A stretch of 39,287 nucleotides of DNA from the sequence record OQ921333.1; one strand, given 5' to 3'. Position 1 is the stretch's first letter. Each line of letters starts with the position of its first letter. The notes beneath the pieces were generated by a model. It saw nothing but the letters and a program-made list of their open reading frames with translations. It searched no databases and was not told the DNA's origin. This document shows, piece by piece, positions 1,554 to 37,465 of the stretch. This DNA is from Escherichia phage vB_EcoP_PAS61. The translations under genes were made by a program, and so were the position numbers.

Positions 1554-2213
1554 CTATCCTTCCTGGACTTTGGTAAGCGTCAGATTTCCGCAGAACACTG
1601 CGCCGGTGTCGATGTACATCTGGTTTGCATACACCAGTGGGTGATGTGCTGGCGTATGACCGAAGATGAACAAATCGGCACCGGTTATCTCCGAGACAAT
1701 ACCGTCCTGCGCGTCGCTAACCCGCTCACGATTCCATATCACCATTTCTTCTGGTACTGGCTTATCGAATGCGTATTCGTTGTGCGGGTAGTCTGCGTGA
1801 CAGATGACGACCTTCTTATTGCCGGTAACCAGTTCGATAATCATCGGGAGGTTGGTAATCTTTGGCAGAAGGTATTTGAGTTGCACATCCTGCTCAGAAT
1901 CAAGTTGGTGCCACCATCCACCGCCGTTTGACATCCAATGTCCGAAACTTCCGCCGTTGACCAGTGCATCCAGCATCATCTGCTCATGGTTGCCACGAAC
2001 AGCTCGGAACCACGGCATAGTAATCAAATCCAGGCATTCGACGTTTTCAGCGCCGCGGTCAACAAGGTCACCAACGGAAATAAGTAAATCGCGCGCCGGG
2101 TCGAATGAAACTTTGTCGAGTTCGTTCATCAGCAGCGTGTAGCACCCATGCAGATCGCCGACGACGAAGATATTGCACCAGTCAGCGCCATTGATGCGTT
2201 GATATAGGTTCAT
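1554..2213 (-). CDS. Serine/threonine protein phosphatase (calcineurin-like metallophosphoesterase, lambda PPase-like)
   Basis: GDLHGC, GDLVDRG and GNHE metallophosphatase motifs; start chosen at internal ATG 2213 whose codon overlaps the upstream gene stop (ATGA), GGGAG RBS. Confidence 0.8.
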
Positions 2214-3559: not shown

Positions 3560-4441
3560 TTACATAGATGTTTCGTTTAATTCTTCCCGACGAACGCTGT
3601 AAACGTCGGTGGCTTTTGCCAGTAGTTCGTCATCATCTGAAAGTTTTTGTGCAATGTATTTGTAAGCCTTATCCAGTTCGGAGACAGTGCTGTAATTCAT
3701 CGCTGCGCTGGTAAAGGCCATCAGCATTTCTTCTGGATCACGGCTATCCGCTTTACGCGTTTGCTCATCAGGCTTTTTCACTGGTTTAGCGTTGATCAGA
3801 CTGTTCATTCCCGCAGCAGTAGTTGTTTGCGGAGTAATGTCTCGTTCAACGCGCGGTGTCGTTTCCTGTAATTCGTCAGGGGTGTAAACACCGAGAAGTA
3901 CATCAGGAGCGTGCAGACGAGCCCATCGTTTCGTGCAAAGATAGGCAAGTTGCTGGCGCGGATCCTGTTCCCACAATGGAGAGTTACGCACTCCGGCTTG
4001 CGCCATACTGATGGTAAGCTCACGTGGTTCTGCTTCTCCTTTAAGAACTGCTGACACAGTTACCGTCAGATTCGGTGATTTATCTGTTTTGCCGTTAACA
4101 TTCGACCAGTCACCGCTCCAGCGATAATTCAGGCGTGTCGCTAGCAGGCTGGAAGAGGATACGACCGCGTTTACCAACTGTGCTTCGTAGCCTAACGTTC
4201 CGTTTACCACATGCGTTTTCTGCGCCACGGCGAAAGGGTTCATTCCCCACTGTGCCGCCTGCATGGTCACCGCCAGGCAATCGGCAGGTTTGCCTTCAAG
4301 ATGTTTCGGTACAGTCGCTTTGCTTTGTGACATCAACTCCGCGAAACGCACCAGTTGATTCATGCCCTCGGGGCTGAAGATTGCCGCAGCAGTGCCTACA
4401 GTTGCGCCTGGTTGTGATGTGATTGCGATATCATTGCTCAT
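3560..4441 (-). CDS. RecT/Red-beta family single-strand annealing protein
   Basis: 293 aa; segment VERDITPQ recalls the lambda Bet C-terminal region (from memory); paired with an upstream exonuclease via ATGA overlap. Confidence 0.55.
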   Translation of the reverse strand: MSNDIAITSQPGATVGTAAAIFSPEGMNQLVRFAELMSQSKATVPKHLEGKPADCLAVTMQAAQWGMNPFAVAQKTHVVNGTLGYEAQLVNAVVSSSSLLATRLNYRWSGDWSNVNGKTDKSPNLTVTVSAVLKGEAEPRELTISMAQAGVRNSPLWEQDPRQQLAYLCTKRWARLHAPDVLLGVYTPDELQETTPRVERDITPQTTTAAGMNSLINAKPVKKPDEQTRKADSRDPEEMLMAFTSAAMNYSTVSELDKAYKYIAQKLSDDDELLAKATDVYSVRREELNETSM

Positions 4442-5259
4442 ACGTACATATCCTGTTTACGTGCCCAGTCAGGGCGTTTAATAATTTCCACTCCGCCCCA
4501 TTCATCGTTGATGCGGCATTCGTGATAGGTATTCAGATCCCGGCGGAACAGAGCGTGCCCGGCATCGACATCCGGCGCATCCAGCTCGAACACGCGTACC
4601 GGATACCGACCACAATCAATGCTTTCGCTCACGGCAAGAAAGAAAAAACCATGCGGCTGACCAGTAACCCTCATTGCGCCTTCGCGGTACATTGCGTCCT
4701 GCACGTGGTAGCGGAATTCCTCGATGTGGCGTGCAAAACGGTCCATATCTGCAACCTTTTTCACGTCGACGATCACGTTGTGCTCGTTCAGCCATTTGTC
4801 TGGACGAATTCGGCACAACTCACCCGTCTCTTCATCGTTCCAGTACATTGATGCTTCGCAGTAACCAGGTGCTTCCAACATCCAGCGCGCCGCCGGATGA
4901 GCCATTGCGCTATCACGCATCAGCTCCAGTTTTCGCCACTGCTCGACATCAAGTACCGTAATACCCATATCCGCCACATCACGAAGAAATGCTTCTTCGT
5001 GAGCTTTACCTTGTTTTGTCCGACGATCGAATTTCGGTGAAACGATGAAGCGTTTGTCGAATTCTCCAGGCTCCAGAAGCAGACAGTGCAATGCGGTTCC
5101 CATATCCAGTGCAGACTTTTTCTCTTCGTCTTCTGGTGCTGCCTGAACCCATTTAAGAAGCGCCGGATTCTTGGCAACCATGTCCAGTTGCGACTTACTC
5201 ACGCCGTCACCGGCGTGGTAGTCTTCGTTGCTGATGTCGAAATAAATTCCCGGCTTCAT
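4438..5259 (-). CDS. PD-(D/E)XK exonuclease (RecE/YqaJ-like recombination exonuclease)
   Basis: 273 aa; DISNEDYH N-terminus, GTALHCLLLE and VIVDVKKV (D-x-K) motifs typical of PD-(D/E)XK phage exonucleases. Confidence 0.7.
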   Translation of the reverse strand: MKPGIYFDISNEDYHAGDGVSKSQLDMVAKNPALLKWVQAAPEDEEKKSALDMGTALHCLLLEPGEFDKRFIVSPKFDRRTKQGKAHEEAFLRDVADMGITVLDVEQWRKLELMRDSAMAHPAARWMLEAPGYCEASMYWNDEETGELCRIRPDKWLNEHNVIVDVKKVADMDRFARHIEEFRYHVQDAMYREGAMRVTGQPHGFFFLAVSESIDCGRYPVRVFELDAPDVDAGHALFRRDLNTYHECRINDEWGGVEIIKRPDWARKQDMYV

Positions 5260-5555
5260 GCCGCGTCCCTCTGCCCATCAAGCTGATCCGCCAGATCCCA
5301 GCGGGCGATAATTGCCATTGCCTCTCGCCGGTAGGCATCCATTAGTTCTTCGAACTCAGGGCTGTCTTTAGCGGCCTCCAGTACTTCCTGGCGAACGCCT
5401 TTGCCTGTTACAACGTCGAAAGTTGAGGCCAGTTGATGAAGTCGGATGCTCTCAATCAGTTCAACTTGTCGGTCATATAGCTGTTCTGACAGACGGTAGT
5501 CCTTGTCGAATGCCAGCATGATTTTTTGAAGATTTTTCTGCTGATTAACGTTCAT
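5256..5555 (-). CDS. Hypothetical protein
   Basis: ORF in track; start moved to internal ATG (MNVNQQ) preceded by GGAGGG RBS. Confidence 0.5.
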   Translation of the reverse strand: MNVNQQKNLQKIMLAFDKDYRLSEQLYDRQVELIESIRLHQLASTFDVVTGKGVRQEVLEAAKDSPEFEELMDAYRREAMAIIARWDLADQLDGQRDAA

Positions 5556-5557
5556 TA

Positions 5558-5710
5558 TCAGCCCTCCCATATCTCGTTATCGTTGGCTACATCGCGAGCT
5601 TCTTTGCTGACGAAAGCCCACTTAATGCCTTCCTGTAAGGTGCGGAACTTCCAGCTCATGAATCCGCATGCAGTAACGCAGTACCAACCGTTGATGATTT
5701 TCCACTGCAT
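5558..5710 (-). CDS. Small hypothetical protein (50 aa, Trp/Cys-containing), first gene of the early-left operon
   Basis: Hand translation MQWKIINGWYCVTACGFMSWKFRTLQEGIKWAFVSKEARDVANDNEIWEG; GAGGT RBS 9 nt upstream; stop abuts next gene RBS; below ORF-track size cutoff. Confidence 0.35.
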   Translation of the reverse strand: MQWKIINGWYCVTACGFMSWKFRTLQEGIKWAFVSKEARDVANDNEIWEG

Positions 5711-5729
5711 AACTTGTTACCTCGGTCTG

Positions 5730-5806
5730 TTACCGTTGAGGTAATAATCATGCGTATATGGTTTGATGTCAATAGATATGAGTTAAAAAAATTACCCGTT
5801 AGGTAA
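5730..5806 (-). promoter_or_regulatory. Early-left promoter region (pL-like): minus-strand -35 TTGACA (5772-5767), -10 GATTAT (5749-5744), flanked by two TTACC-N5-GGTAA operator-like palindromes (5730-5744, 5792-5806)
   Basis: Hexamers and palindromes read directly; 17-nt spacer. Confidence 0.5.
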
Positions 5807-5812
5807 TCGAAT

Positions 5813-5841
5813 AGGCAATAAAAAAGCCGCCATAAGGCGGC
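5813..5841 (-). terminator. Rho-independent terminator downstream of the repressor gene (GCCGCC-ATAA-GGCGGC followed by U-run on minus strand)
   Basis: Perfect 6-bp GC stem with flanking A/T run. Confidence 0.55.
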
Positions 5842-5863
5842 TTACTTACTGAAAAATATGGTT

Positions 5864-6448
5864 TTATTGTTTGTTTTTTTCGTTCTGGTTGATGACAAAT
5901 TCAATGTAACTTTCGATCTTTGCTTTCTCGGTTTCGGGTAACAATGCGTAGCGCGAGCGATCATAGTTGATGGTCGCAGGGTCGTGCGGGTGAATCAGTA
6001 ATTCATAGCCGTGACGCCCGAATGCGGATGCAACATTCTCCAGGGTGGAAATGGAAACGCTGACCTCATTGTTTAACAGGCGGCTGATTGTCACCTGGGC
6101 TACGCCGGATGCGCGGTGAAGTTTTCCCTGTGTTGAAAGGTCGCGGCTTTCGCTCATCCAGCGTTCCAGGTTGTGAGCCGCCAGCTGGCCAATGTCGCTT
6201 GGGCCGACAGGCTGAAAACCTTCCTGAGAAAGCGAGCGATCGATATCAAGCCAGTTACGGGGTTTATTGGCGGCAGCTTCAATTTTTCGCGCAACCTGGT
6301 CGCCGATAACCTTCTTGCCAAGAGCCCAGCGGTTTACCAGATTTGCCTGAGTTCCAAGTTTTTCTGCCATCCGCGTCTGAACACCATTGAATTCACGGTC
6401 GATCAAGTCGTTGAGATTTTGCCTGCGGACGTCCTGGATACTTTTCAT
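5864..6448 (-). CDS. Putative prophage repressor (CI-like role) with two helix-turn-helix regions; no obvious LexA-like S24 peptidase domain
   Basis: 194 aa; HTH-like segments GVQTRMAEKLGTQANLVNRW and GKLHRASGVAQVTISRLLNNE; divergent from a Cro-like gene across an operator-rich intergenic region. Confidence 0.55.
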   Translation of the reverse strand: MKSIQDVRRQNLNDLIDREFNGVQTRMAEKLGTQANLVNRWALGKKVIGDQVARKIEAAANKPRNWLDIDRSLSQEGFQPVGPSDIGQLAAHNLERWMSESRDLSTQGKLHRASGVAQVTISRLLNNEVSVSISTLENVASAFGRHGYELLIHPHDPATINYDRSRYALLPETEKAKIESYIEFVINQNEKNKQ

Positions 6449-6503
6449 TTTCTGGAAAATCGCCTCATATATGAATCGGTAGATGATTCAATTTAAAGCA
6501 ATA

Positions 6504-6590
6504 TTACCCAACAGGTAAATGCACCCCATAGGTAACTATCCTTGATTTTTGTTACCTTATGGGTGAATATTTATTATCTGAAATAAATAT
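6504..6590. promoter_or_regulatory. Divergent immunity promoter/operator region (oR-like): TTACCCAACAGGTAA (6504-6518), inverted GGTAAC/GTTACC half-sites (6524-6566), TTGATT -35-like hexamer (6542-6547), AT-rich palindrome TATTTATT-N6-AATAAATA (6568-6589)
   Basis: Motifs read directly from sequence between the repressor (-) and Cro-like (+) genes. Confidence 0.5.
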
Positions 6591-6602
6591 CAGGCAATAG
6601 CT

Positions 6603-6833
6603 ATGAGCGATAACGGACATTTCGATTTCAAAAAGCACTGGCTTGCACTTACTCCGGATGAGCGTGAAGCCTTCGCACAGGAAGCCGGAACGACGAGTCA
6701 CTATATCCAGACTCACTTAACAGGTAAGCGCAAAATGCCAGGTAAAGTATTGATGAATGGGCTTTTTAAAGCCTGTAAATCAAGACAATGGTTGCGCTCA
6801 AAAGCAGAACTGGCATACTTCTTCTACTCATGA
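6603..6833 (+). CDS. Putative Cro-like early regulator (position-based call)
   Basis: 76 aa ORF transcribed divergently from the repressor immediately after the operator region; weak HTH-like segment. Confidence 0.4.
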   Translation: MSDNGHFDFKKHWLALTPDEREAFAQEAGTTSHYIQTHLTGKRKMPGKVLMNGLFKACKSRQWLRSKAELAYFFYS

Positions 6834-6983
6834 TATCCAGCCACAACCCTCTGTAGACCGCCATCCGGCGGTCTTTTCATATCTATTCGCACCTCAAAGG
6901 TAATAAAAAACCAAATCTGGTTGATCTTTTTTTTGTGTCAGCACAAAATAACCGTAATCCCAATACTAATAACAGGGCTTACC

Positions 6984-7184
6984 ATGGAAATCATTACACG
7001 TATTGATGCCGCAAAGCGCGGACTTAAACGCTACTACACCGGAAAACCATGTAAGCACGGACATGACAGTGAACGCTGGGTTTACAACGGACACTGTGTT
7101 GAGTGCACCATGGAATCAAACCGTCGCATCAGGGCAGAGATTAAGCAGATCATGATTAATTCCTCCCCACAACATTCAAGCTGA
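6984..7184 (+). CDS. Small zinc-ribbon protein (CxxH...CxxC), possible early regulator
   Basis: GKPCKHGH...NGHCVEC motif; start moved to MEIITRID ATG. Confidence 0.45.
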   Translation: MEIITRIDAAKRGLKRYYTGKPCKHGHDSERWVYNGHCVECTMESNRRIRAEIKQIMINSSPQHSS

Positions 7185-7199
7185 TAGCGGAGATTAATC

Positions 7200-8015
7200 A
7201 TGAGCAGACATGCAACAGATTGGGCCTGGGAGACAGATCCAGGTAGCTCGTCATTAAAGCTCATACTGCTCTCGATGGCTGACAGAGCCGATGAATATAA
7301 CCTCTGCTACCCCAGCATAGAACGCCTCGTTAAAGACACCTGCTTGAATAAAAAAACCGTACAGGCCGGGCTTATATCGCTCATGAAAATGGGGCTTATT
7401 TCAGATACCGGAGAGAGAAAGGGAGCGACGAAAAGAGTGCGGGTTTTCTCTCTTAATATAACCAAAAAAGGGAACATTAAAGGCAACCTAGATGGGTGTA
7501 ATGAACCCGAAAACGGTAATGTTCCCAAAAACGGGAATATACCCAAAAACGGGATGTTGAATGATCCCAAAAACGGGATGTTGAATGATCCCAAAAACGG
7601 GATCCAGAACCAGTCATATAACCAGTCATTTAACCAAGAGAGGGAGAGCAGGACAAAAACCGGGGATTCTGTGCCTCATGACCCCGGCGCAAACAACGCC
7701 GTGATGAATAACTTTGTTCCTCCTGGTGGGCCAGGGCAATTAGGCAAATTTGTCATGCATGAACAATGGCAGCCATCAGATGACTTTCTTCGGAAAAGCT
7801 CATTGCAGGGAATCTACCTGGACAGTCTGCCAACGGCACAGGAACTTGCAGAGTTCAGAATTTACTGGATGGCTGAGGGTAAGGCATACCATCAGGCACA
7901 GTGGGAGCAGAAGCTGGCAAGGCGGCTGCAGATTAGCAGACAGAAGCAATCAACATTACCTGATAACAACGTTCCGCACTGGAACAGCCCTGAAGCATGG
8001 GAGGATTTCTTGTGA
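7200..8015 (+). CDS. Replication initiator (lambda O-like role) with N-terminal HTH domain; contains origin iterons
   Basis: 271 aa; N-terminal HTH-like region; internal PKNG repeat encoded by DNA iterons; directly coupled to a lambda P-like gene. Confidence 0.65.
   Translation: MSRHATDWAWETDPGSSSLKLILLSMADRADEYNLCYPSIERLVKDTCLNKKTVQAGLISLMKMGLISDTGERKGATKRVRVFSLNITKKGNIKGNLDGCNEPENGNVPKNGNIPKNGMLNDPKNGMLNDPKNGIQNQSYNQSFNQERESRTKTGDSVPHDPGANNAVMNNFVPPGGPGQLGKFVMHEQWQPSDDFLRKSSLQGIYLDSLPTAQELAEFRIYWMAEGKAYHQAQWEQKLARRLQISRQKQSTLPDNNVPHWNSPEAWEDFL
7506..7602. repeat. Putative origin of replication: five iterons CCC(A/G)AAAACGG(G/T)A spaced 18-24 bp, including a perfect 24-bp tandem repeat (7551-7574 / 7575-7598)
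   Basis: Direct repeats at 7506, 7524, 7542, 7566, 7590 read from sequence; location inside the initiator gene as in lambda ori. Confidence 0.7.
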
Positions 8016-8834: not shown

Positions 8835-8911
8835 TTACCTATAAGGTAACAAAATATTCTAAACTCTATTGATTTCGTGTCTTATGTGGTTTTTAATTAC
8901 CTTAGAGGTAA
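8835..8911 (+). promoter_or_regulatory. Promoter/operator region: TTACCTATAAGGTAA (8835-8849), -35 TTGATT (8869-8874), spacer containing TTATGTGGTT, -10 TTTAAT (8892-8897), TTACCTTAGAGGTAA (8897-8911) overlapping the RBS of the downstream gene
   Basis: Motifs read directly. Confidence 0.45.
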
Positions 8912-8914
8912 ATC

Positions 8915-9262
8915 ATGAGAAAACAGATACAGGCTCTTGGTCGACTCAAAACAGGCCAGATGAACAAAACAGAATCTGCGTATTGCCAGCACCTTGAGCA
9001 GCGTAAACGTGCAGGGGAAATCGCCTGGTATCGATTCGAGGGTATCAAGCTGCGGTTAGCTGACAACACGTTCTATACGCCCGATTTCGCTGTGATGCTC
9101 GCCACCGGAGAGATGGAACTGCACGAAGTGAAAGGGGGATTCTGGACCGACGACGCCAGGGTGAAAACCAAAGTAGCCGCAGATCAGTATCCGTTCCGAA
9201 TCATCGGGGTAACGGTTAAACCAAAGAAAGCAGGTGGCGGCTGGAACATCGAAGAGTTCTGA
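8915..9262 (+). CDS. DUF1064-like phage protein (possible nuclease/resolvase-like)
   Basis: 115 aa; YCQHLEQRKRAGEI..YRFEG..L....FYTPDF pattern recalled as DUF1064. Confidence 0.5.
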   Translation: MRKQIQALGRLKTGQMNKTESAYCQHLEQRKRAGEIAWYRFEGIKLRLADNTFYTPDFAVMLATGEMELHEVKGGFWTDDARVKTKVAADQYPFRIIGVTVKPKKAGGGWNIEEF

Positions 9263-12015: not shown

Positions 12016-12346
12016 ATCAGCAGCAGAGCGCAAAGCCGCTCAGAGAGCCAGACAAGCTGCATCTGGTGTGCGTAAGCTGGAAATTGTGCTTGATGCTCAG
12101 GAAATTGAAATGCTGGAGCGTAACTGTGCCACGCGTCGCCCCGGGCGTGCGCCTTACGAATTTGGTGAGTATATAGCGTTACTGATCCGCCAGGATGATG
12201 CACGCGTGCGCGGGCGTATAAAATCGATCAGCAGAAAATGTTGCGGTAAGTGCGGCGAGAGAGTTCCAGTTAATTCATGCCCGTGTAATGGTGACTCGCA
12301 ATGCTGGGTGACTAAAGGCTGGCATGAAACGAAATTAATAGTGTGA
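12008..12346 (+). CDS. Cys-rich zinc-finger protein immediately upstream of the late operon; candidate late-gene regulator/antiterminator (Q-like role)
   Basis: 112 aa; CCGKCGERVPVNSCPCNGDSQC cluster; stop codon overlaps the GTGACATGTCAC palindrome; followed by an intrinsic terminator and then the terminase genes. Confidence 0.45.
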   Translation: MAKSAAERKAAQRARQAASGVRKLEIVLDAQEIEMLERNCATRRPGRAPYEFGEYIALLIRQDDARVRGRIKSISRKCCGKCGERVPVNSCPCNGDSQCWVTKGWHETKLIV

Positions 12347-12395
12347 CATGTCACGAGTAGATTATGCATGATGAATTTGATGGGTTTTGAATACT

Positions 12396-12421: not shown

Positions 12422-12464
12422 GCATGGTACTATTACCACAACGGTAACTATTACCACGGTGGTT

Positions 12465-13061
12465 ATGATGCCTGCTGAACCTAAAACCTATAAACGCAAA
12501 TCAACGCAATTTAAGCCACTAACAGCAATGCAGGAGGCTTATTGCCAGTCATACATCAAAACGCCTGAAAACCAGACTCAGGCAGCGATTAACGCAGGGT
12601 TCTCCCCAAATACAGCGGCAGTTAAAGCCAGTGTCATGATGCGCGATGAACGCATTCAAAAACGGATTGCCGAGTTGATGGAGGAGCGCAACAAACGAAT
12701 GCGCGTCAGTGCTGATTACGTTCTCATGCGCCTGGTGGAGATCGACCAGATGGACGTGATCGACATCCTCAACGACGATGGGAGCCTTAAACCAATCCGT
12801 GAGTGGCCGAAAATCTGGCGCACTACGCTTAGTGGCTTTGATCTGTCATCGACCATCATGAACATGAACGAGGATTCGATAGAGACAATCCTCAAAAAAA
12901 TTAAATGGCCTGACAAGGTGAAGAACCTTGAGCTGATTGGTAAGCATGTTGATGTCAACGCGTTCAAAGAACGTCTGGATGTTAATGTGAATGTGACAAT
13001 TGCTGATCGCATAGCAGCAGCCAGGAAGCGACTCAAAGAACGTCAGGATGGTAATCAGTGA
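12465..13061 (+). CDS. Terminase small subunit
   Basis: Position immediately upstream of and translationally coupled to terminase large subunit; basic N-terminal region; start moved to ATG after the terminator. Confidence 0.65.
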   Translation: MMPAEPKTYKRKSTQFKPLTAMQEAYCQSYIKTPENQTQAAINAGFSPNTAAVKASVMMRDERIQKRIAELMEERNKRMRVSADYVLMRLVEIDQMDVIDILNDDGSLKPIREWPKIWRTTLSGFDLSSTIMNMNEDSIETILKKIKWPDKVKNLELIGKHVDVNAFKERLDVNVNVTIADRIAAARKRLKERQDGNQ

Positions 13062-14584: not shown

Positions 14585-14610
14585 GCCAGCTCATCGGCTG
14601 GCTGTTTGTG
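14585..14610. terminator. Bidirectional terminator-like hairpin (GCCAGC-TCATCG-GCTGGC) with U-rich flanks, between terminase large subunit and the antisense moron
   Basis: Stem-loop read directly; adjacent to GTGACATGTCAC palindrome at 14608-14619. Confidence 0.45.
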
Positions 14611-14623
14611 ACATGTCACGGTG

Positions 14624-15046
14624 TTAGAAGGTTATTTTATCGAATGCGGCGTTGATTGCCTTGGCGTCCTGCTCAGCACCAACCACATCAAGTAAAGATC
14701 TTTTACTAAGCACTTCAGCCAGGCATTGTAACTTCATGTTGTATAAGTTTTCGCGCATGTAATCATCATCACTTTTTTCTTTGGCGTATACAGCGCGAGA
14801 AATATCAAACACATTGCCTTTTTCCATTTCAGTTTTCTGCGCTGAAATCCAGTCATGGCAAGTAACTCCTATTCCATGGTCATCGCTAAGCGTTAACCCG
14901 GCAAGTCGCTCACCTGGAATTGCTTCATAAAGCATTTCATTTCCTGCAAAAACACCATAAAAAATTGAGTCATCACCCTGAACAATGCGTACATATTTGC
15001 ACGGCCATTCATTTAGATATTTAGCTAGCATGTCGGCTGTTTTCAT
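14624..15046 (-). CDS. Moron gene of unknown function (antisense to the late operon)
   Basis: 140 aa ORF with balanced composition on the opposite strand between terminase and portal, downstream of a tRNA and an intrinsic terminator. Confidence 0.55.
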   Translation of the reverse strand: MKTADMLAKYLNEWPCKYVRIVQGDDSIFYGVFAGNEMLYEAIPGERLAGLTLSDDHGIGVTCHDWISAQKTEMEKGNVFDISRAVYAKEKSDDDYMRENLYNMKLQCLAEVLSKRSLLDVVGAEQDAKAINAAFDKITF

Positions 15047-15056
15047 GATCTCACTT

Positions 15057-15081
15057 TAAAAAAATGCCCGGCGAACCGGGC
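15057..15081 (-). terminator. Rho-independent terminator (GCCCGG-CGAA-CCGGGC followed by U7 on the minus strand) downstream of the tRNA
   Basis: Perfect stem with 7-nt U-run on minus strand. Confidence 0.55.
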
Positions 15082-15211
15082 TGTACTGGTTTACAGCATG
15101 AAGTCATCGCAATGGCGTCCTGCTGTAAAAAGGGCGGTGATAGTTCTTCAAGGGAAACCATCACCGCCAAGCCCCTGGAACTTCTGGCATCACGGTCCTT
15201 AGGCGTGATTC

Positions 15212-15288
15212 TGGCGTGGCATGCAGGATTCGAACCTGCGACCAACCGCTTAGAAGGCGGTTGCTCTGTCCGACTGAGCTAATGCCAC
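15212..15288 (-). tRNA. tRNA-Arg (anticodon UCU), phage-encoded
   Basis: Hand-folded cloverleaf: acceptor GTGGCAT/ATGCCAC, D-stem GCTC/GAGC, anticodon stem ACCGC/GCGGT with loop CTTCTAA, T-arm GCAGG-TTCGAAT-CCTGC, discriminator G and encoded CCA. Confidence 0.85.
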
Positions 15289-15610: not shown

Positions 15611-15677
15611 TTACCTGAAAGGTAATAATTCACGCGTTAAATGTCAACCTTCTACGATAAATAAATCATATGTGGTT
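15611..15677. promoter_or_regulatory. Regulatory region upstream of the portal module: TTACCTGAAAGGTAA (15611-15625), TTGACA on minus strand (15647-15642), CATATGTGGTT (15667-15677)
   Basis: Motifs read directly. Confidence 0.4.
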
Positions 15678-15715
15678 AAATTGGTAATAATTTAATTGCG
15701 TACGGAGTCATTGAT

Positions 15716-20187: not shown

Positions 20188-20625
20188 ATGATCACCGACA
20201 AACTGTTGATGTTCTCCGAAGCTCAGGCGGTTACGAATACCGCGGCTTCTACTGACGTAATCGATCTCGGTCCAATTGACGGAAAACGTCGTGATATCGG
20301 CGTGGGTTACCCGCTTGAGTTTTGGGCGCTGGTTAACACAGCCGCCGCGGCAAGCGGTGATGCAACTGTAAACATCCAGTTGCAGACGAGTGAGAATAAC
20401 AGCTCATGGACCACTATTTATGATAGTGGCGCACTGGCAAAGACCGCCCTGACAGCAGGTAAACGAGTTGTTTCTGCAAAGGTGCCTGCCGGTGTTCAGC
20501 GATATCTGCGTGTTAACTACTCCGTCGCAACTGGCCCACTAACGGCTGGCGAATTCACTGCGGGTATCAGTCTTGATGTTGATGCCAATACGCCGTATCC
20601 GATCCGCTCAAAAGTAACTGGTTAA
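20188..20625 (+). CDS. Hypothetical virion protein (possible capsid decoration/staple protein by position)
   Basis: 145 aa ORF directly downstream of the capsid gene. Confidence 0.45.
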   Translation: MITDKLLMFSEAQAVTNTAASTDVIDLGPIDGKRRDIGVGYPLEFWALVNTAAAASGDATVNIQLQTSENNSSWTTIYDSGALAKTALTAGKRVVSAKVPAGVQRYLRVNYSVATGPLTAGEFTAGISLDVDANTPYPIRSKVTG

Positions 20626-20635
20626 GGTGATATCG

Positions 20636-20971
20636 ATGTCAGGTGAGAAACCAAGATACCGCGTTCTGCGCCTCTCTCATATCCATAACACGCTGTGGCC
20701 GGAGGGGGCAGAAATCGAATACGAAGGTGAGCCTGGTAGCGCACTGGAACCTGTTAACGATGCGGCCAGACAGGCAAAAGCAAAAGTTGCAGGAAAGGTG
20801 TCAATGGCAGCAACCAGCACCAAAATCATCAACGATGTGTCAGATGATGGTGAACTGGATAAGCTCCGTGAAGAGTACGAATTGCTCTTTAACGAGAAGC
20901 CACACCATAACGCCAAAGCCGAAACGCTCCGCGAGAAGATCGCAGATAAGCGTAAAGAACTGGGCGTGTAA
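20636..20971 (+). CDS. Hypothetical protein
   Basis: ORF with ATG 8 nt after AAGG; followed by intrinsic terminator. Confidence 0.5.
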   Translation: MSGEKPRYRVLRLSHIHNTLWPEGAEIEYEGEPGSALEPVNDAARQAKAKVAGKVSMAATSTKIINDVSDDGELDKLREEYELLFNEKPHHNAKAETLREKIADKRKELGV

Positions 20972-20988
20972 GCCTCGCGGATCAGACA

Positions 20989-21010
20989 AGGGGCTTCGGC
21001 CCCTTTATTG
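20989..21010 (+). terminator. Rho-independent terminator inside the late region (GGGGC-TTCG-GCCCC + TTTATTG)
   Basis: Perfect GC stem with UUCG tetraloop and U-run. Confidence 0.6.
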
Positions 21011-21021
21011 CAGGAGTGTAT

Positions 21022-21345
21022 ATGGAACTCGTAAACCTCAAAACCGGCACTGACAGCTACCAGGATGAGAGCGGAGAAACCAGAACTCGCGATGAATACC
21101 CGTGGGGGCTGTGCATCACTCTTAATAACGACACATTGAATAAGCTGAAGGCGCAACCTCAGGGCGTCGGAACAGAAGTGATGATAACTGCAAAGGCTGT
21201 TATTCGAGGCCTGTCTGCCAGAGAAACTGACGATGGTGTTAATCGCAGCGCCGATCTGCAGATCACTGATATGGCGATCGCTCCTGTTTCCGGGGATGTA
21301 GAAAAATCAGCGGCTGAAACTCTGTACGGCAATGGGGGGGAGTAA
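21022..21345 (+). CDS. Hypothetical structural protein
   Basis: ORF with AGGAG RBS directly after terminator. Confidence 0.5.
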   Translation: MELVNLKTGTDSYQDESGETRTRDEYPWGLCITLNNDTLNKLKAQPQGVGTEVMITAKAVIRGLSARETDDGVNRSADLQITDMAIAPVSGDVEKSAAETLYGNGGE

Positions 21346-21950
21346 TGGCCTCTGTAGTAGAGATCTGTAATCGTGCGCTGTCCAATATTGGCAACAGCCG
21401 CAGCATTAACAGCCTGACGGAAGCCAGCAAGGAAGCGGGGGAATGTTCGCTGCACTTTGAGGCCTGCCGTGATGCTGTGCTTTCTGATTTTGACTGGAAC
21501 TTTGCTACCAAACGCGTGGCGCTTGCAGATACGAGCAATCCACCGCCTGACTGGGAATATGCGTACCAATACCCGTCAGATTGTCTGCGCATTACTGAAA
21601 TTATGCTTCCTGGTGTACGCAATCCAACAGCAGCAATGCGCGTCCAGTACGAAGTGGGTGCAGACACAAACGGAACAGGAAAGTTGATCTACACAGACCA
21701 GCCGCAGGCATGGCTCAAGTATGTCTCTCGCGTTTCAGATGTAAACATGTTTGATGCCATTTTTATGGAGGCGCTGGCCTGGCGTCTTGCGGCAGCCATT
21801 AACATGGCGCTGACTGGGAATGCAGACCTCGGTACGTTTGCCCTCAATATGTACAATCGCGTGATTCTTAGTGCTGGCTCGCATAGCCAGAATGAATCAC
21901 AGGAACCTCAGCCGCCGGTTGATGAGTTTACCATTGCGAGGTTGTCCTGA
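21345..21950 (+). CDS. Tail tubular protein A-like (T7 gp11-like adaptor)
   Basis: 201 aa; size, position and N-terminal character resemble T7 gp11 (from memory); TAATG overlap. Confidence 0.5.
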   Translation: MASVVEICNRALSNIGNSRSINSLTEASKEAGECSLHFEACRDAVLSDFDWNFATKRVALADTSNPPPDWEYAYQYPSDCLRITEIMLPGVRNPTAAMRVQYEVGADTNGTGKLIYTDQPQAWLKYVSRVSDVNMFDAIFMEALAWRLAAAINMALTGNADLGTFALNMYNRVILSAGSHSQNESQEPQPPVDEFTIARLS

Positions 21951-32666: not shown

Positions 32667-32686
32667 CGTGAGCGTGACATGTCACA

Positions 32687-32712
32687 GGCCGCTTTCGCGG
32701 CCTTTAAATTTA
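32687..32712 (+). terminator. Rho-independent terminator (GGCCGC-TTTC-GCGGCC + U-rich tail) ending the injection operon
   Basis: Perfect 6-bp GC stem plus U-run; GTGACATGTCAC palindrome directly upstream. Confidence 0.6.
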
Positions 32713-32967
32713 CCGGGTTTGTTTTCGTAATTGTTCGGCACAATAGTCGAGATGTGTTTGCAGATCCTGCATAGACATCTGTGAGCTGGTGACGTAGTTA
32801 ATCAGTGCAGTCAGTTCGGCAAGTGGGCCATCGACATTAAATCCATCCTTATCGAGATCCCGGAGTAATTTCATCAAGTGCGATCCATCCACCAGTGACC
32901 TGACGCCTCCCGGCGTGTGAATCCTTTCGGTAAATCCGTCTTCCAGTGGATAGTGATACTGCTGCAT
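32710..32967 (-). CDS. Moron gene of unknown function (85 aa) with its own promoter/operator
   Basis: Start moved to internal ATG (MQQYHYPLEDG) with GGAG RBS; upstream 41 codons of the track ORF run through AT-rich regulatory sequence. Confidence 0.5.
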   Translation of the reverse strand: MQQYHYPLEDGFTERIHTPGGVRSLVDGSHLMKLLRDLDKDGFNVDGPLAELTALINYVTSSQMSMQDLQTHLDYCAEQLRKQTR

Positions 32968-33004
32968 CTTATCTTCTCCATGCAATAACTGTATATTTAT
33001 ACAG

Positions 33005-33098
33005 TAGCAAATAATTTGTTTGCTATCCAGCACGTTTTGCAAATTACCAGAAAGGTAATATCTATTCTTATTCACAGTCTTTCTATCCATATGTGGTT
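33005..33098. promoter_or_regulatory. Regulatory region between moron and tailspike: perfect palindrome TAGCAAA-N7-TTTGCTA (33005-33025), TTACCAGAAAGGTAA (33044-33058), CATATGTGGTT (33088-33098)
   Basis: Motifs read directly. Confidence 0.45.
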
Positions 33099-33162
33099 TT
33101 TCAGGTAATAGAATAACTAGATATGCGGCGCAACGGGTGCTGCGACTATCTGGAGATTTAAC

Positions 33163-37364: not shown

Positions 37365-37465
37365 GATCCCTCCGTTATTTGGTATCTAGGTAACATGTAA
37401 CCACATATGGTTTATAGTGTATGATGAACTCACCAACTAAGGGGGTTCTTCATGCACATTAAACG

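Follow-up and report, generated by a model that had tools for sequence, protein, structure and literature searches.

The immunity region of Escherichia phage vB_EcoP_PAS61 is very probably the lysis-lysogeny switch of an SPC32H-type Rep/Ant system, in which the repressor Rep is most likely inactivated by Ant, a small antirepressor under SOS control whose gene lies 26 kb from rep. The window, by which we mean the whole stretch of 39,287 nt analysed here (sequence record OQ921333.1), is 98.4% identical to phiV10 DNA over positions 5400-7200, and its source is a phiV10-like Uetakevirus, an epsilon15-like temperate podovirus. The Rep/Ant switch is an already characterised system, known from Salmonella phage SPC32H (as outlined in Kim and Ryu 2013, J Virol 87:11775, and Kim et al. 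2016, PNAS 113:E2480; PDB 5D4Z, 5D50), and it raises no new biological question. The chief value of recognising it lies in annotation: the immunity region was found in 539 of 5426 complete E. coli genomes (~10%), rep is labelled just 'helix-turn-helix domain-containing protein' in E. coli genomes, and phage records (phiV10, ZX5) list the small ant as a 'hypothetical protein'. Furthermore, recognition of the Rep/Ant pair shows which gene's deletion would lock phages or reporter phages of the phiV10 type in lysogeny.

Rep, a homologue of the SPC32H repressor

The open reading frame rep (5864-6448, minus strand), which a preliminary description of this DNA had put forward as a repressor candidate, encodes a 194-aa prophage repressor that is homologous to SPC32H Rep over its full length. 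In phmmer searches, Rep residues 1-190 aligned to residues 2-197 of PDB 5D50_A 'Repressor' (E=4e-42) and its C-terminal residues 89-190 to 5D4Z_A (SPC32H Rep 92-198; E=4e-20). Rep also matched PHROG_8 'transcriptional regulator' (4.5e-27). It shares 42% identity with SPC32H Rep (43% in the C-terminal domain) and is 100% identical to phiV10 p40, ZX5 ORF21 and phiv142-3 Rep. Overexpression of the identical ZX5 Rep lowered endolysin and holin transcripts by 99.97-99.99% (PMC9782041). Among four Reps, both the putative recognition helix NLVNRW (Rep 36-41) and a C-terminal motif, I.YD...Y..LP..EK.KI...I.F...QN, are invariant.

Two HTH-like segments had been described in this protein, and both are present: Pfam places HTH_3 in two stretches, the best at residues 106-147 (E=1.2e-9), and there are sub-threshold N-terminal matches to HTH-type families (YdaS_toxin at residues 21-61, DUF739 and HigA-like). 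However, by homology with SPC32H Rep the second segment is predicted to dimerise rather than to bind DNA. The same homology suggests an N-terminal HTH DNA-binding domain (residues ~1-70) followed by a linker, an HTH_3-like middle dimerisation domain (residues ~92-150) and a C-terminal tetramerisation/Ant-binding domain (residues ~151-190), with the N-terminal HTH probably being the sole DNA-binding domain of Rep. The domain layout of SPC32H Rep, its binding of Ant and its tetramer-dependent DNA binding are given here as summarised in secondary papers. A single-sequence AF2 model of Rep was discarded (pLDDT 44.9).

Putative promoters and operators flanking rep

On its leftward side, rep is followed by an intrinsic terminator of its own (5814-5843, minus strand), previously placed at 5813-5841, in which a stem (5843-5824) is followed by UUUUUUAUU. 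It was recovered by both scan and fold (-21.1 kcal/mol; z=-5.05 vs shuffles) and is annotated as a terminator in phiV10. Beyond it, the PL-like promoter proposed earlier was found again at 5744-5772 on the minus strand (TTGACA 5772-5767, 17 nt, GATTAT 5749-5744; 10/12 matches), and its -35 and -10 hexamers are invariant in the alignment of relatives. The single promoter and single terminator calls are individually not above the scan's shuffle background, and we consider them credible because of their position and their conservation in relatives. PL would drive the leftward genes 5558-5710 and 5256-5570 as well as those for the exonuclease and RecT. As the preliminary description had it, the promoter is bracketed by two TTACC-N5-GGTAA sites, both perfect. 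The OL-distal operator (5792-5806; TTACCCGTTAGGTAA) lies 19 nt upstream of the PL -35, while the OL-proximal operator (5730-5744; TTACCGTTGAGGTAA) covers the expected PL start site, its first base being the last base of the PL -10. The two are 62 bp apart, centre to centre, and in four phages the OL half-sites are invariant and the N5 spacer is variable.

On the rightward side, sequence comparison indicates that OR is tripartite, with its operators at conserved offsets, as in the three relatives SPC32H, Tyrion and BUCT711. OR1 (6504-6518), 56 nt from the rep ATG, is a perfect TTACC-N5-GGTAA and corresponds to the third perfect site noted earlier toward the Cro-like gene. It overlaps a weak PRM-like candidate (6491-6519, minus strand; TTTACC 6519-6514, 17 nt, TTAAAT 6496-6491), which was picked out by eye and falls below the promoter-scan threshold. 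OR2 (6521-6535; GCACCCCATAGGTAA) is degenerate, with two mismatches, and OR3 (6552-6566; TTACCTTATGGGTGA), which overlaps PR, has one. The inverted half-sites GGTAAC and GTTACC reported for this interval do exist as a pair, but they are better read as the good halves of these two degenerate full operators, GGTAAC being the right half of OR2 and GTTACC the left half of OR3. A repeat search returned OR2 and OR3 as an 18-nt inverted pair (arms 6519-6536 and 6551-6568) centred on the PR -35 region. The offset of OR2 is the same in four phages (+71 to +73); its deviation from the motif is also seen in Tyrion, and OR2 is perfect in SPC32H and BUCT711. The perfect OR operator, OR1, adjoins rep and not PR, a placement opposite to the affinity order of the OR sites in lambda.

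The PR-like promoter region (6542-6577, plus strand) contains TTGTTA (6549-6554), a 17-nt spacer and TATTAT (6572-6577), with 9/12 matches; an alternative -35, TTGATT (6542-6547), is invariant in four phages. The AT-rich palindrome mentioned in the preliminary description is perfect (6567-6590; ATATTTATT-N6-AATAAATAT), its arms at 6567-6575 and 6582-6590 being 9/9 complementary in the repeat search, and it spans the PR -10 and start site. It is present in vB_EcoP_PAS61 and Tyrion and absent from SPC32H and BUCT711. The rightward operon begins with a Cro-like gene (6603-6833, plus strand; 76 aa) and the scan placed a terminator after it (6855-6874). The Cro-like protein matched PHROG_35 'transcriptional repressor' (8.7e-13); it had no Pfam or NCBIfam match and no PDB sequence match even at E<=10. 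Its AF2 model comprises five helices (pLDDT 82), for which the best Foldseek hits were the HTH domains of YdaS, 434 repressor and C-protein (TM ~0.6, all E>1). The PHROG_35 match and this weak fold resemblance are what suggest the label Cro-like.

The operator motif across the genome

Allowing at most one mismatch, TTACC-N5-GGTAA has 11 matches in the 39,287 nt against 0.67 expected, and none of 100 shuffles reached 11. An unbiased tally of every 5-mer hyphenated palindrome (spacers 0-12) likewise ranked it first, at 8 copies; in 30 shuffles, the commonest motif reached 2-4 copies. The sites are syntenic in SPC32H, Tyrion and BUCT711, with invariant half-sites and variable spacers. Moreover, the motif is not limited to the immunity region but also occurs at a third promoter-like cassette, at ant and at the starts of late blocks.

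The third cassette (8835-8911, plus strand) repeats the layout and 62-bp spacing seen at PL: an operator (8835-8849) is followed after 19 nt by TTGATT (8869-8874), and after a further 17 nt by TTTAAT (8892-8897), which is fused to a second operator (8897-8911). The two hexamers were assigned by manual reading, and the sigma-70 promoter scan made no call for this cassette, for ant or for PRM. The right half of the second operator supplies the SD (GAGG) for an ATG at 8915, and the terminator upstream of the cassette is annotated in phiV10. Both in this cassette and at PL, the paired operators stand 62-63 bp apart, centre to centre, in each of the four phages compared. Further along, two tandem sites (12433-12465; perfect at 12433-12447, one mismatch at 12451-12465) lie downstream of a terminator and abut the start of the small-terminase gene, with syntenic counterparts in SPC32H and Tyrion. 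A lone operator (15611-15625) upstream of the portal-side late block is syntenic in all four phages, and another (33044-33058; TTACCAGAAAGGTAA), whose position is conserved in four phages, lies between the divergent ant and tailspike genes, 39 nt upstream of a predicted LexA box. An operator ahead of the lysis cassette, as in SPC32H and Tyrion, was rejected for vB_EcoP_PAS61, where the site has three mismatches.

Rep is proposed to bind these sites. It is unlikely that the motif serves mainly another regulator, Cro-like or devoted to late genes, with Rep recognising a different sequence. Sites that precede the terminase, portal-side and tailspike blocks could suit such a regulator; yet TTACC-N5-GGTAA is the sole strongly over-represented palindrome, it sits at PL, PR and the third cassette, where the repressor must act, and neither its half-site nor the putative recognition helix varies among Reps whose identity is 42-78%. 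Binding by Cro would also leave binding by Rep possible, as Cro and the repressor use the same operators in switches of the lambda type.

With Rep as the protein that binds the motif, three further readings can be drawn from the arrangement of the sites. At the paired operators, one Rep tetramer may clamp both sites through its two cross-dimer DNA-binding pairs and trap the promoter in a micro-loop of ~60 bp. At the lone operators, Rep may directly control ant and the late-block starts. Finally, Uetakeviruses of Escherichia, Salmonella, Enterobacter and Klebsiella could cross-repress and cross-induce one another, because Ant (87%) and the half-site (identical) are kept across Reps that are just 42% identical. 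Taken jointly, these three readings are tentative and on balance somewhat doubtful.

Ant, the proposed route of induction and comparison with known switches

The gene we call ant (32710-32967, minus strand) encodes an 85-aa SPC32H-type antirepressor. It matched PDB 5D50_E 'Anti-repressor protein' (E=1e-46), it is 87% identical to SPC32H Ant, and it has no Pfam or NCBIfam family match. Its neighbours, a small membrane-protein gene on one side and the tailspike gene on the other, are those of the annotated SPC32H ant. A longer reading frame (32710-33090) starts too far upstream and was rejected: both the family profile and the PDB homologue begin at its residue 42. The ant ATG is preceded at 21 nt by a predicted LexA (SOS) box (32989-33004; CTGTATATTTATACAG), and CTGTATATTTATACAG is the sole perfect CTGT-N8-ACAG with an all-A/T core in the genome. 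The position of the box is the same in SPC32H and Tyrion, as is the succession of operator, 39 nt, LexA box, ~21 nt and ATG; in BUCT711 the box has one mismatch. Two other perfect CTGT-N8-ACAG sequences, at 15081 and 20151, were taken as chance occurrences rather than as marks of a second LexA-regulated gene, because their cores are non-AT and neither is kept perfect in relatives.

The Ant homologue behind a perfect LexA box, together with the homology of Rep, supports at the sequence level the earlier suggestion that induction may depend on an antirepressor. In SPC32H, Ant is controlled by LexA according to a review citing Kim and Ryu (2013, J Virol 87:11775), and the same control is predicted for ant of vB_EcoP_PAS61. 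Prophages of the phiV10 species of Uetakevirus were induced 21- to 47-fold by a microcin that the authors of that study class as DNA-damaging, and recognition of Rep/Ant explains such a response to DNA damage despite a repressor without self-cleavage. SOS need not be the sole trigger, since ZX5 lysogens release phage spontaneously (1e7 PFU/ml; PMC9782041). The binding of Ant to the phage's own Rep is extrapolated from SPC32H, because this Rep is 42% identical to its SPC32H counterpart while Ant is 87% identical.

Induction through a large Bro-N-type antirepressor akin to ZX5 ORF4, instead of the small Ant, is very improbable. phiV10, ZX5 and Tyrion do carry a Bro-N gene beside the small ant, and overexpression of ZX5 ORF4 cut prophage titres from 1e9 to 1e6 (PMC9782041). 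However, the Bro-N gene is absent from the vB_EcoP_PAS61 stretch (tblastn with Tyrion gp20, best E=0.49), where the gap between the membrane-protein gene and ant is a mere 43 bp, and the small ant and its LexA box are present and intact. Tyrion gp20 shares 40% identity with Ant over its own C-terminal 78 residues (E=5e-20), and the effect of the ZX5 Bro-N protein can be explained because this related Tyrion protein has an Ant-like C-terminus; in vB_EcoP_PAS61 the Ant-like module is a free-standing 85-aa protein. Least probable of all, to the point of being negligible, is that Rep is a lambda CI or LexA-type repressor undergoing RecA-stimulated self-cleavage through a divergent or cryptic protease domain: a prophage repressor with a divergent rep/cro arrangement and multiple operators would suit it, as would the response to the microcin, but the Pfam search of Rep, in line with the preliminary description, gave HTH_3 and no Peptidase_S24 match even at E<=1, direct reading of its sequence found no Ala-Gly, no Cys-Gly and no cysteine, the ~45 residues after the second HTH-like domain are too few for an S24 fold, and Rep can be aligned in full to SPC32H Rep, in which the C-terminus forms the tetramerisation/Ant-binding domain.

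We therefore favour the small Ant as the inactivator of Rep and propose the following mechanism. The N-terminal helix-turn-helix of Rep would recognise the palindrome (A)TTACC-N5-GGTAA(T), its middle HTH_3-like domain would dimerise and its C-terminal domain would form tetramers. In the lysogen, Rep would occupy the two operators bracketing PL (5730, 5792), the three across the divergent PRM/PR (6504, 6521, 6552) and the two bracketing the third cassette (8835, 8897), thereby keeping the early operons off, and the rep terminator is proposed to stop rep transcription from entering PL, shielding it from read-through. Lacking an S24 domain, Rep would stay uncleaved during induction. Upon DNA damage, cleavage of host LexA would free the LexA box at 32989-33004 and allow Ant to be made; Ant would then bind the C-terminal domains of Rep and break up the DNA-binding tetramer, so that the operators are released.

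The switch resembles that of SPC32H, also of the genus Uetakevirus, in that rep diverges from a cro-like gene, ant lies on the opposite strand in the membrane-protein/tailspike interval with a LexA box equally far from it, the operator half-sites are identical, OR is tripartite, and operator pairs stand 62 bp apart at PL and the third cassette. It differs in that two of three OR sites are perfect in SPC32H whereas OR2 and OR3 are degenerate here, in that a third OL site of SPC32H (33528) is missing, and in the AT-rich palindrome over PR, which is confined to the phiV10/Tyrion branch. With phiV10 and vB_EcoP_ZX5 (PMC9782041) the phage shares an identical Rep and DNA that is 98% identical, but not their extra Bro-N 'antirepressor' gene. 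In the lambda CI/Cro switch, too, repressor and cro diverge, OR has three parts, PL carries operators and a terminator insulates the repressor gene; in contrast to lambda, Rep has no S24 autocleavage domain, the operators stand 62 bp apart on either side of the promoter instead of next to one another, and, by homology with SPC32H Rep as described in secondary accounts, Rep would be tetrameric, with DNA-binding pairs formed across dimers. Kim and Ryu reportedly found the podovirus Ant to be structurally distinct from the Tum, Gifsy and Fels antirepressors. In coliphage 186 (Tum) and in the Gifsy and Fels prophages (Lemire et al. 2011), as a review describes, the logic is the one proposed here, with a non-cleavable repressor and a LexA-repressed small inactivator. 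Rco of the Bacillus plasmid pLS20 (TetDloop; antirepressor Rap), as portrayed in a structure-based secondary paper, combines an N-terminal HTH with a C-terminal p53-like tetramerisation domain; like Rep, it is inactivated by a protein partner, and it forms DNA loops, but it lacks a middle dimerisation domain, comes from another type of element and loops over much larger distances.

Identity and spread of the immunity region

The immunity region of PAS61 is an SPC32H-type Rep/Ant (repressor/antirepressor) switch in its phiV10-branch version. Positions 5400-7200 of the window are 98.4% identical to Escherichia phage phiV10 (DQ126339), whose genus, Uetakevirus, consists of epsilon15-like temperate podoviruses, and 77.7% identical to Enterobacter phage Tyrion. 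The 194-aa repressor ORF, rep (5864-6448, minus), is present as in the preliminary description, which was correct in its finding and right in its interpretation. Its product, Rep, is 100% identical to the repressors of phiV10, phiv142-3, ZX5 and others, 78% identical to that of Tyrion, 45% to that of Klebsiella phage BUCT711 and 42% to those of epsilon15 and Salmonella phage SPC32H. The phiV10 record labels its homologue 'putative transcriptional repressor, two helix-turn-helix motifs' and annotates a terminator downstream; the repressor annotation dates from 2005-2009. At a threshold of at least 95% identity, the 921-bp immunity region (5700-6620) was detected in 539 of 5426 complete E. coli genomes, nearly always on the chromosome, with rep labelled only 'helix-turn-helix domain-containing protein'.

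The differences from the SPC32H switch are quantitative. Ant is 87% identical between the two phages whereas Rep, its presumed target, is only 42% identical (43% in the C-terminal domain); furthermore, unlike SPC32H, the window has degenerate OR2 and OR3 operators, no third OL site at the leftward promoter, and an extra AT-rich palindrome over the rightward promoter PR. The Rep/Ant switch is already a known system; what may still be new is the conserved 62-bp geometry with which operators bracket promoters, the wider operator set and possible Ant/operator cross-talk.

Operators inside and outside the immunity region

The operator motif TTACC-N5-GGTAA occurs 11 times in the window with at most one mismatch, against 0.67 expected, and an unbiased count ranked it as the commonest hyphenated palindrome (8 copies; maximum of 2-4 in shuffles). 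As previously described, perfect sites at 5730 and 5792 surround the leftward PL-like promoter (5744-5772, minus; TTGACA/17/GATTAT, match score 10/12), a third lies at 6504, and rep is followed by a terminator (stem 5843-5824, then a U-run; fold -21.1 kcal/mol, z=-5.05). SPC32H, Tyrion and BUCT711 were scanned for the same motif and site positions were mapped relative to rep. In all four phages the PL pair is spaced 62-63 bp centre to centre, and OR, toward the Cro-like gene, is tripartite, with sites at +54-56, +71-73 and +101-104 from the rep ATG. The window's versions are OR1 (6504-6518, perfect), OR2 (6521-6535; GCACC...GGTAA, two mismatches) and OR3 (6552-6566; ...GGTGA, one mismatch), and the OR2 and OR3 deviations are also found in Tyrion. 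A repeat search recovered the inverted half-sites GGTAAC and GTTACC, which prove to be the well-matched halves of OR2 and OR3, and the AT-rich palindrome with 9-nt arms, all noted earlier. The PR-like promoter (6542-6577, plus) overlaps with OR3, and a weak PRM-like candidate promoter for rep, read by eye where the promoter scan makes no call, overlaps OR1. A lone TTACC at 5717-5721 (in 5717-5723) is the complement of the Shine-Dalgarno sequence (GAGGTAA) of the first PL gene.

Two more perfect operators, at 8835 and 8897, form another pair that follows a conserved terminator and precedes the gene at 8915. This third cassette (8835-8911, plus) has the same layout as PL: operator, 19 nt, -35-like TTGATT, 17 nt and -10-like TTTAAT, which shares its last base with the start of the second operator; the cassette's 62-bp operator spacing is kept in 4/4 phages. 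The promoter scan makes no call on these hexamers, and from its layout the cassette probably contains a promoter. The ATG at 8915 takes its Shine-Dalgarno sequence from the right half of the 8897-8911 operator (AGAGGTAA). Further conserved operators precede the small-terminase gene (12433 and 12451) and the portal-side block (15611), and one lies between ant and the tailspike gene (33044). A near-operator, GGTATTACCTTAAAGGTATAC (234-254), precedes the integrase gene. SPC32H and Tyrion keep the site and share its single deviation (GGTAT), and BUCT711 has a similar one at the corresponding place; the site may serve integrase or excisionase, or be bound weakly by Rep.

Across alignments of OR, OL and the third cassette, half-sites are invariant while N5 spacers and flanks vary, a pattern that would be expected of protein-binding sites. 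That the motif mainly serves a regulator other than Rep is unlikely given its rank among the window's palindromes and the presumed recognition helix of Rep, NLVNRW (residues 36-41), which is invariant across the four Reps.

Antirepressor, repressor and induction

In a PHROG scan, the C-terminus of an anti-repressor family matched an ORF at 32710-33090 (minus). The ant gene (32710-32967, minus) starts with an ATG at 32967, preceded by GGAG, with the LexA box CTGTATAAATATACAG immediately upstream on the coding strand. The 85-aa protein it encodes has a match in PDB 5D50 chain E, 'Anti-repressor protein' (E=1e-46), which supports the antirepressor-dependent induction suggested earlier. Flanked by a small membrane-protein gene and the tailspike gene, ant is carried on the opposite strand, an arrangement identical to that of the annotated SPC32H ant. 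The order Rep-type operator, 39 nt, LexA box, about 21 nt, ATG is shared by the window, SPC32H and Tyrion; the BUCT711 box has one mismatch. Kim and Ryu reportedly found in 2013 that SPC32H Rep escapes cleavage during SOS induction and is instead inactivated by Ant, whose expression is under LexA repression. A review gives the same account. In a 2026 preprint, a microcin classed as DNA-damaging by its authors induces phiV10-species prophages 21- to 47-fold. Because Ant is conserved and the operator half-site is identical across the genus, phages from different hosts may be able to cross-induce one another and to confer cross-immunity.

A Bro-N-type antirepressor, the type examined in the ZX5 paper, where the repressor was tested by overexpression, is very unlikely to be the inducer here: no such gene was found in the window. 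Bro-N 'antirepressors' are carried by phiV10, ZX5, phiv142-3 and Tyrion (20417-21121), and the C-terminal 78 residues of the Tyrion protein are homologous to Ant (40% identity, E=5e-20). If ZX5 ORF4 is built likewise, an Ant-like C-terminus would explain its reported effect. The small ant is only a 'hypothetical protein' in the phiV10, ZX5 and phiv142-3 records, and Tyrion gp21 is annotated as 54 aa while the ORF behind the LexA box (21439-21699) has 86 aa.

So far as the sequence allows a judgement, autocleavage of Rep is excluded, since Pfam gave no Peptidase_S24 match even at E<=1, in line with the S24 absence noted earlier, and residues 1-190 align to the full-length SPC32H repressor (PDB 5D50 chain A, E=4e-42). 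Ala-Gly and Cys-Gly dipeptides are absent from the Rep sequence. Residues 89-190 align with 5D4Z, the crystal construct Rep(92-198), and the C-terminal pattern I.YD...Y..LP..EK.KI...I.F...QN is invariant across the four Reps. The two HTH-like segments described previously correspond to Pfam HTH_3 in two stretches, the best at 106-147 (E=1.2e-9), with weak N-terminal HTH-type matches at 21-61. As summarized in secondary accounts, SPC32H Rep comprises an N-terminal DNA-binding part, a middle dimerisation part and a C-terminal domain responsible for tetramerisation as well as Ant binding, and it binds DNA as a tetramer with DNA-binding pairs assembled across dimers. Given this layout of the homologue, the 'second HTH' is most likely the dimerisation domain, and the ~45 residues that follow most likely form an Ant-binding/tetramerisation module rather than a protease.

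An SPC32H-type mechanism, with LexA-controlled Ant disassembling the Rep tetramer, is very probable overall. The sequence data show the homologies, the missing S24 domain and how the sites are enriched, placed and conserved; by homology, Rep of PAS61 would bind the operators, LexA would control ant and Ant would bind Rep. In the lysogen, Rep tetramers would keep PL, PR and the third cassette closed, and the terminator would block rep transcripts from running into PL. DNA damage would remove LexA from the ant promoter, and Ant would then bind the C-terminal domains of Rep, take the tetramer apart and free the operators.

Other elements in the window

Three copies of the perfect 12-bp palindrome GTGACATGTCAC are present (12343-12354, 14608-14619 and 32674-32685), with four matches at up to one mismatch against 0.17 expected. 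Every copy ends a rightward gene block, shortly before a terminator or leftward-transcribed insert; SPC32H and BUCT711 each have three copies and Tyrion two, at mostly corresponding positions. Two perfect copies of the element CATATGTGGTT-N5-GGTAATA, at 15667-15689 and 33088-33110, precede the rightward late blocks of the portal side and the tailspike, each with a lone Rep-type operator 44-56 bp to its left. The three relatives have the element at the same places, and a weaker third copy lies before the lysis genes (about 37403-37425); the element may act as a late promoter or activator site.

The leftward insert that follows the terminase genes carries a tRNA-Arg(tct) gene (15212-15288, minus), a feature shared with SPC32H. 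The leftward gene 14624-15046 has, 35 bp before its start, a CTGT-N8-ACAG box (15081-15096) with a non-AT core that was considered as a LexA site; given that core and the lack of a conserved perfect box in the relatives, it is probably a chance match. At 1554-2213 (minus), a calcineurin-like metallophosphatase gene adjoins the adenine methylase gene, and the metallophosphatase is absent from the phiV10 features listed for the corresponding region. RecT (3560-4441) and an exonuclease (4438-5259), both minus, are separate overlapping ORFs in the window, whereas phiV10 annotates a fused recET.
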